From positions 1 to 35,611 of the IMG/VR virus record IMGVR_UViG_3300012682_000004: a DNA stretch of 35,611 nucleotides, one strand, 5' to 3'. Position 1 is the first letter of the stretch. Every line of letters starts with the position of its first letter. Origin of the DNA: a virus. Lineage: Duplodnaviria > Caudoviricetes. This document shows positions 10,704 through 35,412 of this stretch, in pieces. The position numbers and the translations under genes were made by a program. The notes beneath the pieces are model-generated. The model made no database searches. It was not told the DNA's origin and saw only the letters and a program-made list of their open reading frames with translations.

Positions 10704-10928
10704 ATGCCCGGTAACAAACTTGGTGGCACTAAAATCAAACAATCCATGCTAAAACGCTTCAACGGCGACATGGACAAGCTACGGGAACACTTCGCAACTA
10801 TCGGTAGGAATGGCGGTCTAGCCCCCCACTCGAAACCACGAGGCTTCAGCGCTAGCCGTGAGTTAGCTTCAGCAGCCGGTAGACTCGGTGGCCTAGCAAG
10901 TCGGCGCGGAAAGAACAAAGTTAAATGA
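10704..10928 (+). CDS. KGG-repeat (stress-induced motif) protein
   Basis: IGRNGG and GFSASRELASAAGRLGG. Confidence 0.75.
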   Translation: MPGNKLGGTKIKQSMLKRFNGDMDKLREHFATIGRNGGLAPHSKPRGFSASRELASAAGRLGGLASRRGKNKVK

Positions 10929-11098
10929 CCGACATCGAAACCCACCTCAACAAAACCAAAAAAAGTCACAACCGACTAGGCTACAATGACTTTCAACAAC
11001 GCTTAGAAATAGGCCTGTCAAAGGTTCGGATAGCGGAGGATTTTGGGGTTTCTGTGAGGACTATATTTAGTTGGTTGAAGTTGAAGGGTGGTAAGTGA
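10925..11098 (+). CDS. Helix-turn-helix protein, 57 aa
   Basis: GLSKVRIAEDFGVSVRTIFSWLK; ATGA coupling. Confidence 0.75.
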   Translation: MTDIETHLNKTKKSHNRLGYNDFQQRLEIGLSKVRIAEDFGVSVRTIFSWLKLKGGK

Positions 11099-13580: not shown

Positions 13581-15017
13581 TTACTTTGTCCCCTTTATTT
13601 TTTTAGTTATCCAGTGAGCAGTACCAACATATTTACTAGCCATCTTACTGAGCGCCACGTCTACTCTTTCTTTGTCCGTTAGGTAGCCACGAGGTAGGGC
13701 GGCTCGTTCAGCTAGGGTAAGTGGTAACAGGATAATATCCTCGTCAGTCATAGTGTGCATTGGTATACCCCACCAGTGACCTTTGGCGATAGTGGCTTCA
13801 AAGTCTTTACCAACCCGGCCGTATAGATTACCCTCAATCAGAAACGTCCCGATAATATTAACTCTTTGTCCGGCAATGATAGTGCTTTCACGGCCGGTTC
13901 CGTGTTCGTATATTGTTTGGTCTTCGTCTACCATATAAACGCTAGGTTCACGGTCTTCATTTAACGGCTTAAATGTAGTTCTGAAGTCATGTTTAAGTAA
14001 TGGTGGCTCCGGTACGATTTCGTCCATCTCAGGCAAGGGTAGCAGTGGTTCCGGCACAATCGGCAAGGCGACCTCAACTATCGGTTCTATCTTAGGTTTG
14101 TAAAAGTGACCGTCCTCTAAGTCTTGCCAGTTAAAGCCAGTTGTAGCACCGACTAGGCCGGTTGTCTTGTACTTACCGATACCAGCACTGTCCATGTAAT
14201 ACTTAGCCGTGTCTTCGCCGATTGGTACGTTAGCCGAACCGTATATTTTAAGGTTAGCATTTTCGGGGTAAGTTAAGCCGACCATGTGTAGATTTTCCCA
14301 AGTCTTAATATTCCCGAACGCCCATTTTTTAGCACCACCAGTCTTGATAATGTGCATGTCACGGGGTTTTGAATAGACTTCGTATGATGTCACTCTATCG
14401 GAGTTGTCGGGTGGTATGTCTTTAGGCAAAGTTATGACCATACCAGGCTTGATGTCACCGGCTTGTAGGGCGTTAATGGCTAATAGTTCTAGCGGTTTAT
14501 TGCCAGTCCGTTTAGCTATCTCCCAGATTGTGTCGGCTTCGAGGACGGTGTAGGTTTTGGTCGTAGTTTCGGGTGCAGGGGTAGGTTCACTAACTACTAC
14601 TGGCTCATCTAACTCTAGCAAGTACTCTGGATCAATATGGTAGCTACACCAGCCGAACGGACCATGATATAGACTAGCGTTCTTAATTTCTCCGTCTAAA
14701 CTATCTATAATGGAATGAAACATTGGGTCGCCACTCAAGCAGTAATGGTCAACAGTATTTCCGTTTTCGTCCGTCCGTTTGAGCTTGATAATAGCGTCAC
14801 TGGTAGTCGGGAAGTCGCCACTGTCGCTAACTTCTTTGGTATCGATTGACTCATCAATACCAGTAAGAGTCCACCAGTCGGGTTCTTCCATCATCTTAGC
14901 TAGGGCGCGTGGTTCTATAGGTCGGCTGAACTTTTGAAGTAAGTTAGCCGTTGCAATCACGAGTGATAAGTTTGGGCTGTCTAGGTCAGTGTAGTCGTTT
15001 TGGGTATAGTATTTCAT
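13581..15017 (-). CDS. LysM-domain protein with degenerate C39-like N-terminal domain
   Basis: YTVLEADTIWEIAKRTG...ELLAINAL....IKPGMVITLP. Confidence 0.8.
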   Translation of the reverse strand: MKYYTQNDYTDLDSPNLSLVIATANLLQKFSRPIEPRALAKMMEEPDWWTLTGIDESIDTKEVSDSGDFPTTSDAIIKLKRTDENGNTVDHYCLSGDPMFHSIIDSLDGEIKNASLYHGPFGWCSYHIDPEYLLELDEPVVVSEPTPAPETTTKTYTVLEADTIWEIAKRTGNKPLELLAINALQAGDIKPGMVITLPKDIPPDNSDRVTSYEVYSKPRDMHIIKTGGAKKWAFGNIKTWENLHMVGLTYPENANLKIYGSANVPIGEDTAKYYMDSAGIGKYKTTGLVGATTGFNWQDLEDGHFYKPKIEPIVEVALPIVPEPLLPLPEMDEIVPEPPLLKHDFRTTFKPLNEDREPSVYMVDEDQTIYEHGTGRESTIIAGQRVNIIGTFLIEGNLYGRVGKDFEATIAKGHWWGIPMHTMTDEDIILLPLTLAERAALPRGYLTDKERVDVALSKMASKYVGTAHWITKKIKGTK

Positions 15018-18662: not shown

Positions 18663-18720
18663 AGTTACACTGCCGTCTACCCTCGTTGTTGGGCATTATA
18701 TAGTACTAAAGCTTAAAATA

Positions 18721-21302: not shown

Positions 21303-21962
21303 CTAGTTACTAACTCGCACCCGGCCATTGCTGGGGGCTTTACGTGCGCCCATACTCCGGCCATTGTGCCTGATTTGCATAGATTCCAGGCCGTCTTCGT
21401 ATTCTTGTTTGTAAGTGGCAGCTACGTCATGGTTGCCACGGTACTTCTCAGCTCGGTAGTCAGCGTATAGTTCGAGCAGTTCTCGGAATACTTCGGGTAC
21501 TTCTGGTATAGCGGTGTCATTAGTGAGGGGGGTTGGGTTGCGGTAGTAGCGTAGGTTTAGAGTATAAGCCTTATCTAGCGGGCAGTTGAAGTATATCTGG
21601 TCGCCAAATTCAGTCCAGGCGCTTGGTAGGTTAGCAGCTTCACTAGCCGGGTCAGGATAAGCGTCAAAGAACATATCAGAGCTGACGTAGGTGCTGGTGT
21701 TAAGCTTAAACTGGCGCTTGCTGTCGGTCGGGTCAACCAGTACGCCACCAATCGTCACTTGCCAGTCGGCTTGCATATCAAACGTATACTCGTTAATTAT
21801 CAGTATACCGGTAACTGACTTCTCAGAAAATCGGAACGTGTGGGTATTGAATATGTTATTTTGAGCGTAATTGATATAGCGACCTATACGGCTGCTACTA
21901 AATCCGGTGTCTTTTAAGTCATCTTGGACTGATGTTTTGAGGTCTAGTAGGTTATAAGCCAT
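21303..21962 (-). CDS. Head-tail adaptor
   Basis: L...VQDDL.D, YINYAQ, P.DKAY.L.L.YY, PEVPE.F.ELL. Confidence 0.75.
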   Translation of the reverse strand: MAYNLLDLKTSVQDDLKDTGFSSSRIGRYINYAQNNIFNTHTFRFSEKSVTGILIINEYTFDMQADWQVTIGGVLVDPTDSKRQFKLNTSTYVSSDMFFDAYPDPASEAANLPSAWTEFGDQIYFNCPLDKAYTLNLRYYRNPTPLTNDTAIPEVPEVFRELLELYADYRAEKYRGNHDVAATYKQEYEDGLESMQIRHNGRSMGARKAPSNGRVRVSN

Positions 21963-22025
21963 GTCAATAGCCGCCGCCTACCCTGTTGAGTTAAATTGTA
22001 GCACGTTATGGGGCTATCGGTATAG

Positions 22026-28633: not shown

Positions 28634-29389
28634 TTAGAGCAAGCCAGCGACAATCTGTTGAGTTTCAGGTTTAGCGCGTTCAGCGGCACTGAGGTTGCTG
28701 TACCATTGGTCTAAGTTTGCCTTTGTCGGTCCGGAGTTGCCCAACGCACTGGTTGTAGCAGTTCCGGTGACGGCTTTAGCTTGCTGTTTATCAGCGAGCT
28801 GCTGGAGCGCTTCTTTACCACCCTGCGATTTAAGACTATTGGCGACTTGGGGGTCGCTACCGCGAGCCATGCTGTGCAAATCATTAAGACTCAGGTATCC
28901 GGCGGATACGAGCTGACCTATTTCGGGCTTGTCTGTGACGATTTTTGACATCGTGGCTTCCAGTTCTTTTGCTTCGGGGTTACTACTAAAAAAGTCGTTA
29001 ACGCTGTTCTGTAGTTTAATGCCCTGTATGTCGGCTTGGAGCCTAGTGGCTACATCCGGGTCTATCAGGCTGTCTACTGCATTGTTGTGCGTTTCGCTTA
29101 GTGATTTTTGTAACTCCGACGCTTTCGCAGTCGAGTTGTGCATGTTCCGTTCAGCGTTCCGGTACATTTCAGCTACTTTGCTGAGTGCTTCGGGGCTATT
29201 CGGGTCGATGCCTTTGCTCTGTAACCAGTCGAGTGAGTTGTCGTCTTGTGACGGCTCAGATTCTTCGGTTGTGGTAGTCGCTTGGTCGGCGGTAGAGTTG
29301 TCCGCCGTACCAGCATCAGCGCTAACTGGTTGTGTCGAATCGACGCCAGTATCTTCTGTAGTGGTTTCGGTTGTGGTGTTTTCTTCCAT
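28634..29389 (-). CDS. Scaffolding protein
   Basis: Acidic N-terminus and coiled coil; SD AAGGAG before ATG 29389 (not 29443). Confidence 0.8.
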   Translation of the reverse strand: MEENTTTETTTEDTGVDSTQPVSADAGTADNSTADQATTTTEESEPSQDDNSLDWLQSKGIDPNSPEALSKVAEMYRNAERNMHNSTAKASELQKSLSETHNNAVDSLIDPDVATRLQADIQGIKLQNSVNDFFSSNPEAKELEATMSKIVTDKPEIGQLVSAGYLSLNDLHSMARGSDPQVANSLKSQGGKEALQQLADKQQAKAVTGTATTSALGNSGPTKANLDQWYSNLSAAERAKPETQQIVAGLL

Positions 29390-29426
29390 GACCTTCTCCT
29401 TAATTAAGTTAATAAAAGCAGTTCGC

Positions 29427-29601
29427 CCTAGACGCAGCCCCACCTAACGGGGTAGCCGGGGAGAGTTCCTCTCCTAGCAATATGCTTTTAATTTCATAAT
29501 TACTATAGAGGCTGCGCTTTAGGTTGTGACCGGGGTATTACCCCCGCTGTGATGGCCTACAAGTGAGAAAATGGCATAGGCCGCCACAGTGGAGGTGATA
29601 C
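29427..29601 (-). ncRNA. Structured RNA element upstream of the scaffold gene
   Basis: Long hairpin 29535-29601 plus multibranch domain 29427-29523; wobble pairs favour the minus strand. Confidence 0.6.
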
Positions 29602-29604
29602 GGG

Positions 29605-35205: not shown

Positions 35206-35385
35206 AAACAAAAAGAAACCGCCCCTGCCGGGTGGGACAGAGGCGGCGCTTGGAGCCGGCCAGCTAGGTTTGACGGCAGTTCGATGGTCTAGACTCGACT
35301 GCCCCGCTAATAAGTGTTTACCCTACGCCAGCAGTGACTTGATGACATAAGGAATTTTAGCTCGCGGTCACATATTTATAGGCCA
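35206..35385 (-). ncRNA. Candidate sRNA, about 180 nt
   Basis: TGCTACTAT at 35391-35399; internal stems; 11-bp terminator 35219-35246 with U-tract; insulated upstream by another terminator. Confidence 0.65.
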
Positions 35386-35412
35386 TTTTGATAGTAGCAT
35401 AAATCAGCCCTT

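Follow-up and report, generated by a model that had tools for sequence, protein, structure and literature searches.

A structured RNA upstream of the scaffold gene as the very probable partner of a leader motif shared by virion messages in a group of phages likely infecting Saccharibacteria

In the phage contig analysed here (the window, 35,611 nt), a structured non-coding region between an 85-aa gene and the scaffold gene (29395..29604, minus strand) very probably gives rise to the true pairing partner of a motif found at the start of several virion messages. The initial annotation had proposed that an RNA reads a motif shared by virion-assembly messages and had assigned this role to a short unit at 35384-35206. 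The idea is strongly supported by our comparisons, the identity of that RNA is not: judged from the sequences compared, the conserved RNA-leader system is real but had been mislocated.

The window is a whole circular phage contig, as read from its sequence, with a 123-nt terminal repeat. PHROGs and Pfam annotate a terminase, SU10-type portal and adaptor, a major head gene, a LysM protein and a DnaD-like replication gene. No late sigma factor, antiterminator or activator was named by these databases in the 35,611 nt, where most small ORFs had no match and one small HTH was annotated at 10925-11098. Relatives were found within Saccharimonadales genomes (3 of 401 by the adaptor profile and 3 of 401 by the nozzle protein), and the host is therefore likely to belong to Saccharibacteria. 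Among five incomplete genomes of this host group, RNase J was present in all, Rho above cut-off in none and Hfq in none; a canonical 16S tail is present in one genome of the group. Throughout, transcription starts are placed by -10 spacing and all RNAs are predictions.

Target leaders and the scaffold-leader RNA

Six relatives found via the adaptor share a common leader layout, with an extended -10, a motif from about +1 and a start codon near +27, and the 18662-type leaders follow it in four of the six. In the window, the adaptor (SU10 adaptor, PF24175) has the promoter TGcTACAAT at 22003-21995, the motif at 21987-21974 (together 21974..22003, minus strand) and its ATG at 21962, and gene 18662-17916 has the -10 TATAAT at 18700-18695 with the motif at 18687-18673 (18673..18700, minus strand). 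The latter gene had no PHROG or Pfam match and the label of ejection gene is that of the initial annotation, so it is treated here as putative. Leaders of late low-copy genes thus consist of a TGnTATAAT-type promoter, a phage-specific motif and a start codon at about +23 to +32, mostly without a Shine-Dalgarno (SD); they precede the adaptor, the putative ejection gene and often the portal and the gene that follows the capsid operon. Within one phage the motifs are alike, and between phages they differ (AGGGUAGG, AGAGUAAG, GGGGUUGG, GACUAAAG and ACACGGGCAGG), and a scan with the leader pattern gave 120 loci. An SD of -5 or better is found in 6 of 42 target leaders and a TTG or GTG start in 20 of 40. 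A strong SD is absent also from 31 of 48 non-target genes of this phage, and in the blind loci described below the contrast in SD absence was non-significant (0/11 vs 3/14, p 0.23).

In G001 and G011, the leader of the 18662 homologue contains a short upstream ORF beginning at +27/+28, which retains the usual spacing and ends in TAATG overlapping the gene. At the portal promoters of the same two relatives (G001 28337 and G011 26643) and in L221 the motif is absent, and another conserved sequence, GCCACTGA...CAGAG...GTCG, is common to them, perhaps as a different control element. The motif is missing from the related G490 (L294), whose leaders at about 5404 and 7912 are SD-led and carry ATC where a start codon would be expected. 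A segment of about 35 nt (TTAACAATCTATATCCCTATCTGCGGCTCAA...GAAAGGAA) is common to the leader of gene 12547 of the window (12619-12545, minus strand) and to the sequence directly following the scaffold-leader RNA of G003.

The scaffold-leader element itself (29604-29395), which is likely transcribed, is present in 13 phages and has a fold z-score of -3.8 (0/200 shuffles). It starts with a long imperfect hairpin directly 3' of the upstream stop codon (29530..29604), which may be a processing or stabilising element. A closing stem follows, whose 5' arm (29508..29517, with 8 of 11 pairs changed on both sides among nine phages) and 3' arm (29432..29441) enclose a large loop. The loop comprises an A/U-rich 5' strand (29476..29507), a small hairpin AGGAGAG-GAA-CUCUCC (29460..29475, 4 of 6 pairs changed on both sides) and, adjoining it, the 15-nt anti-leader guide CCGGCUACCCCGUUA (29445..29459), all on the minus strand. 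Downstream is the scaffold-like gene, labelled from its place between the portal and the major head gene, with the SD AAGGAG at 29401-29396 (28634..29401 together, minus strand) and a likely start at ATG 29389 rather than GTG 29443. Both partners changed in 12 of the 17 stem pairs, with a covariation score of 0.60 (0/500 shuffles) in a MAFFT alignment of nine sequences, the structure being derived from that same alignment; the RNA structure is thus conserved with compensatory changes within this sample.

A covariance model (R1) retrieves only the clade of this phage and misses G002 (partly outside the locus supplied), G008-G010 and G021. A scan for the conserved 5' motif of the RNA gave 8 matches, 2 known and 6 unrelated. 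The A/U-rich loop strand showed no covariation with promoters, and a 6S-like promoter mimic or a second spacer was rejected on this ground. In the scaffold RNA of G001, G007 and G011, the loop GTCCGCCC of the upstream hairpin complements GGGCGGAC located 3' of the closing stem, a possible second pseudoknot.

The guide complements the predicted +2..+17 of the adaptor and 18662 transcripts, with energies of -19.8 and -19.3 kcal/mol, respectively, and an opening cost of 3.7 on the guide side; after opening, net values are -10.5 (18662) and -6.8 kcal/mol (adaptor). When non-coding sequence was searched for the leader complement, the top match in G001, G002 and G003 fell immediately upstream of scaffold; the G004 site upstream of scaffold was seen as an inverted motif, the top matches of G005 were unlisted leaders, and G006 is without the region. 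The complement occupies the same scaffold-upstream position in G005, G007, G011, L033 and the distant G008-G010. For G021, the guide was predicted beforehand from six leaders (AACACGGGCAGG) and ACCUGCCCG was found at the expected place, with a 9-nt perfect core. G542 also shows a guide-leader match, by eye.

Over 13 phages with about seven motifs, the cognate guide-leader energy was -19.0 against -12.0 +/- 1.1 kcal/mol for permuted pairs (0/100,000 permutations), and with only the orthologous adaptor and 18662 leaders of 10 phages it was -19.3 against -12.2 (0/200,000); as phages and leaders are related, these p-values overstate independence. The cognate guide came first for 10 of the 13 leader sets and second for the other 3, and after collapsing the data to seven motif classes the cognate assignment ranked 1 of 5040. 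A blind set was assembled from 76 new loci, 46 of them usable and 26 distinct with a promoter call, leaving 25 once one near-copy was dropped. At these 25 portal loci the energy was -12.3 against -10.5 +/- 0.5 (14/100,000 permutations), a weaker tracking than in the 13 phages. Eleven of the 25 were matched by at most 1/40 shuffles and 14 were non-significant; among the latter are loci whose portal leaders are led by an SD or otherwise organised. In the blind set, the guide strand did not outperform the opposite-strand control (p 0.30), a likely reason being that many of these loci carry the motif in sense orientation on the 3' side of the closing stem.

Genome-wide, 6 of the 7 top non-self guide targets of G008 are located at TATAAT promoters. 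In the phage of the window, the guide mismatches the core, neither the 18662 nor the adaptor leader is among its ten best sites genome-wide, and the portal leader does not pair with the guide (-6.0). Taken over the phages, an accessible guide covaries with its target sites while G-U pairs and bulges are tolerated, as is general for trans-acting base-pairing RNAs.

Direction of effect and level of action

Given real pairing, the predicted folds tip slightly towards activation as the net effect. The start region of target leaders costs a predicted 9.8 kcal/mol to open when free and 5.0 when guide-bound, close to the 4.7 of 48 non-target genes of this phage. Blocking the guide site relieves targets by 4.8 and non-targets by 1.2 kcal/mol, and the relief exceeds that of spacer-shuffled controls in 32 of 41 leaders, a set that omits this phage's portal and two leaders without ORF. 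Most of the occlusion stems from the G-rich motif itself, with shuffled controls averaging about 8.5 kcal/mol; the specific excess is 1.3 kcal/mol (26/41), and the synonymous-codon control was null (20/41, p 0.68). In G008, a tRNA-Asp gene (L182 6039-6113) is preceded by a late promoter and the leader motif, and in this single case the folds predict a misfolded tRNA when the leader is free and a cloverleaf when +1..+16 are blocked. The tRNA-Asp of G006 has no such leader.

The scaffold-leader RNA may be a natural toehold-like activator of late messages, a proposal for which we see about as much reason for belief as for doubt. The G-rich motif is predicted to fold back over the start region; guide binding would free it, in the manner of a natural toehold switch, and the bound 5' end would in addition be protected from RNase J. 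Since the guide is part of the portal-scaffold-capsid transcript, the head-gene mRNA would switch on the synthesis of adaptor, nozzle and ejection proteins, with positive feedback where the portal itself is a target. Nothing was found in these analyses to explain the silence of host-type promoters in a lysogen. An SD supplied in trans by the AGGAG of the small hairpin is disfavoured, since about 22 nt would have to be spanned to reach the start codon.

The same RNA and targets could serve repression or dosage control, with an abundant scaffold-capsid mRNA capping the translation of minor virion messages by binding their 5' ends, as in c4. We consider this rather unlikely, with several features in its favour. 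The genes identified as targets (portal, adaptor, putative ejection genes) encode low-copy parts, strong SDs precede scaffold and capsid, and the duplex adjoins the ribosome footprint, its end being separated from the start codon by a median of 11 nt. A duplex ending about 11 nt before the start codon is at a position where small RNAs often repress. The ATC after the SDs of G490 also suggests that low output is the aim. Against repression, leaders that look locked when free look typical once guide-bound, their relief is mostly above the controls, and the tRNA leader is predicted to fold correctly only if its motif is occupied.

Control at the DNA level is improbable in any of its forms: a protein operator that occupies +1..+16 and recurs in inverted form before scaffold, an RNA-guided protein on the non-template strand (TIGR- or CRISPRi-like), or an action on the nascent transcript during promoter escape. 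It would fit the exact registration of the motif to the promoter, a non-translated tRNA among the targets, and a stem-strand-hairpin-guide-stem layout that resembles stem-loop tigRNAs (bioRxiv 10.64898/2026.09.09.750476). However, in 34 leaders (this phage's portal leader excluded) wobble-compatible transitions are favoured over incompatible ones (15/161 vs 7/281, p 0.0025) and 14 indel columns occur besides; G-U wobbles, bulges and compensatory stems point to RNA. The inverted copy lies in the loop of a covarying RNA fold, the other strand has no -10 before it, save a weak one in G004, and the spacing to the start codon is fixed. No second covarying spacer and no conserved CCA-N9-UG were seen, and a Nop domain (PF01798) was found in 0 of 5 searched, with a Pfam profile that may miss divergent Tas.

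Still less probable is the reverse direction, in which the guide would be a pseudoknot loop of the scaffold leader and the late 5' ends would act as displacing ligands tuning scaffold-capsid expression. A distant clade does repeat the leader motif immediately 3' of its closing stem, and this copy covaries with guide and leaders (9 of 10 loci tested, G021 and G542). This sense copy is observed 28-51 nt before the scaffold start in L224, L234, L237, L252, L259, L261, L263, L270, L272, G021 and G542, and is likely a pseudoknot mask of the guide. In the clade of this phage, however, the copy is weak or absent (-4.6 to -8.9 in 8 of 9), and the folds predict no change of access to the scaffold SD.

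The insulated unit at 35384-35206

The unit first flagged (35206..35399, minus strand) has an extended -10, TGcTACTAT (35399-35391), a hairpin upstream (35450-35421) and an intrinsic terminator (35247-35218) with a U tract, with a predicted RNA of 179 nt and a fold z-score of -2.5. It looks like an insulated non-coding unit, as had been claimed. Fold prediction also agrees that its 5' arm, UUAGCGGGGCAGUCGAG (35294..35310), mimics the leaders and masks the proposed seed, ACUGCCGUCAAACCU (35280-35266); the seed is complementary to the leaders because it is the hairpin partner of an arm resembling them. The pair counts given for it are correct, being 13/15 with the 18662 leader and 12/15 with two G-U with the adaptor. 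Those for the portal (5+6) and LysM (9 with a bulge) are also correct, but neither gene gains support as a target in this phage: over 55 annotated leaders, the seed's top three were 18662, TerS and the adaptor, with LysM 11th and the portal outside the top 14. The TerS match would be mostly untranscribed, since it overlaps the TerS -10 box. Between TerS and the TerL start codon there is a terminator-like hairpin (32959-32943, minus strand) that would limit TerL.

The best 18-nt window against the 18662 and adaptor leaders jointly (-20.2) was reached by 17/150 dinucleotide shuffles. Against four hand-picked leaders, 5/150 equalled the flagged RNA; the coarser step used to scan the shuffles biases these comparisons towards the observed value. 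The pairing of the seed beyond chance is weak. Both of its mismatches sit in GGGUAG, the leader core conserved among relatives, and for these two leaders it ranks fourth among non-coding windows, after a terminator arm, the scaffold-leader element and one other site (a ranking by whole-RNA duplexes was swamped by long GC-rich chance duplexes). The seed is buried, its opening costing 10.0 kcal/mol and 4.7 once the mimic arm is bound, and after opening its net energy is -3.7 for 18662 and +2.4 kcal/mol for the adaptor, against the -10.5 and -6.8 of the scaffold-leader guide. No homologue was detected in 17 other contigs or prophage regions (nhmmer best E 3.5), BLAST gave 0/5, and the 25 exact seed matches among viral contigs have no common flanks. 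The expected covariation of seed and leaders in relatives was found instead for the complement upstream of the scaffold gene. A master role for this RNA, with its seed acting on the leaders, is thus very unlikely, even with real matches to two leaders and an opening cost that falls upon arm binding.

A possible, still tentative role for the flagged RNA is that of a decoy titrating the guide, with the seed as the masking strand. Its mimic arm pairs with the guide at -22.3 kcal/mol, which ranks 1 of 2913 non-coding windows (3/150 shuffles) and ahead of both leaders, making it a candidate decoy site and the sixth non-self guide site genome-wide; as the arm is masked, only -4.2 kcal/mol net is left after opening. 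About 23 non-leader insulated units were collected across this phage and eight relatives, of which G002 yielded none, and a guide match beating 40/40 shuffles occurred in four units (this phage, G001, G004 and G021). These analogues are only suggestive. The decoy remains a minority reading because the four units share neither homology nor synteny, the match in G001 falls within a terminator arm, and the alignment between this phage and G004 is unconvincing.

At 29080-28945 (minus strand) of G004 (L162, about 13945-14080) there is an insulated 135-nt unit with a canonical promoter and a hairpin-masked leader-like motif at its start. G011 has several small promoter-terminator units upstream of its replication gene (46759-47100 in joined coordinates, L192), positioned like the flagged RNA and unrelated to it in sequence. 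The replication-gene leader of the window (35188-35021, minus strand) combines a promoter of its own with a long hairpin and with a terminator-like stem (35061-35041) whose end lies 9 nt before ATG 35032, and it looks like an attenuator of the replication gene.

Known systems and biological meaning

The literature was searched at listing level, subscription papers lying outside it, and gave no description of the scaffold-leader element; the main text of Weinberg 2017 does not contain 'scaffold', 'portal' or 'Saccharibacteria', and its supplements could hold an unnamed motif. Rfam had no match for this element or for the flagged RNA, with only chance-level hits to other families at E<=10. The C and D boxes of TIGR-Tas guides are spelled CCA-N9-UG.

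Among the nearest known systems is the C4 antisense RNA of phages P1/P7, an RNA of about 77 nt that folds into three stem-loops, is processed by RNase P and through two loops represses one immunity operon by occluding ribosome-binding sites (PMC5320573). Both are structured phage RNAs with single-stranded loops that pair, or would pair, in trans with phage mRNA leaders, and we count as a further likeness that C4 is cut from a longer transcript and varies in specificity with its loop sequence. Unlike C4, a single loop strand here reads +1..+16 of several separately promoted virion genes, mostly without SD; of the two strands that would correspond to the a' and b' loops, one covaries and the other does not, and the C4 Rfam covariance model found nothing at gathering score in this phage. 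Pairing at the extreme 5' end is shared with FasX of Streptococcus pyogenes, which stabilises ska mRNA and raises its output (PMC7509114), but FasX is a stand-alone chromosomal sRNA without a phage-wide shared address motif.

Synthetic toehold switches have a 5' toehold of about 14 nt beside a hairpin over the initiation region, which a trigger RNA opens (PMC9071393). These are engineered and release an SD-type ribosome-binding site, whereas the hairpins predicted here are weak and varied and most leaders lack an SD. StxS is a phage late-region RNA that activates rpoS in trans by an anti-antisense mechanism and needs Hfq (PMC7547250); its target is a host gene, unlike the phage targets here, and Hfq was not found in the 5 host-group genomes. 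Stem-loop TIGR-Tas guides occur in Patescibacteria and can repress transcription (bioRxiv 10.64898/2026.09.09.750476). They have in common with the scaffold-leader RNA a closing stem that encloses a two-strand loop and an inner hairpin, but the latter is a single unit without paired spacers flanked by box C and box D and without a conserved box C/D.

What this analysis adds is a blind test of covariation, evidence for unlocking, a tRNA as target, the built-in mask and a candidate decoy. A further-reaching proposal, which we hold to be doubtful as a whole, is an RNA-only late switch. Host-type promoters would make locked late messages, and the scaffold-leader trigger would unlock them by toehold strand displacement, standing in for a late sigma factor or antiterminator and for the SD. 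A mask, either built-in or, in this phage, the RNA 35384-35206, would soak up the trigger, set a threshold and release its own seed onto the leaders.

Late timing in tailed phages is usually ascribed to proteins, namely late sigma factors, antiterminators and activators. Throughout this uncultured family, virion messages appear to be addressed through a phage-specific code of 16 nt that a single RNA reads, in hosts for which neither Rho nor Hfq was found. If the RNA represses, it would be a direct means of setting the stoichiometry of portal, adaptor and capsid. If it activates, it would be a natural multi-target toehold switch and the family would hold naturally orthogonal trigger-leader pairs.
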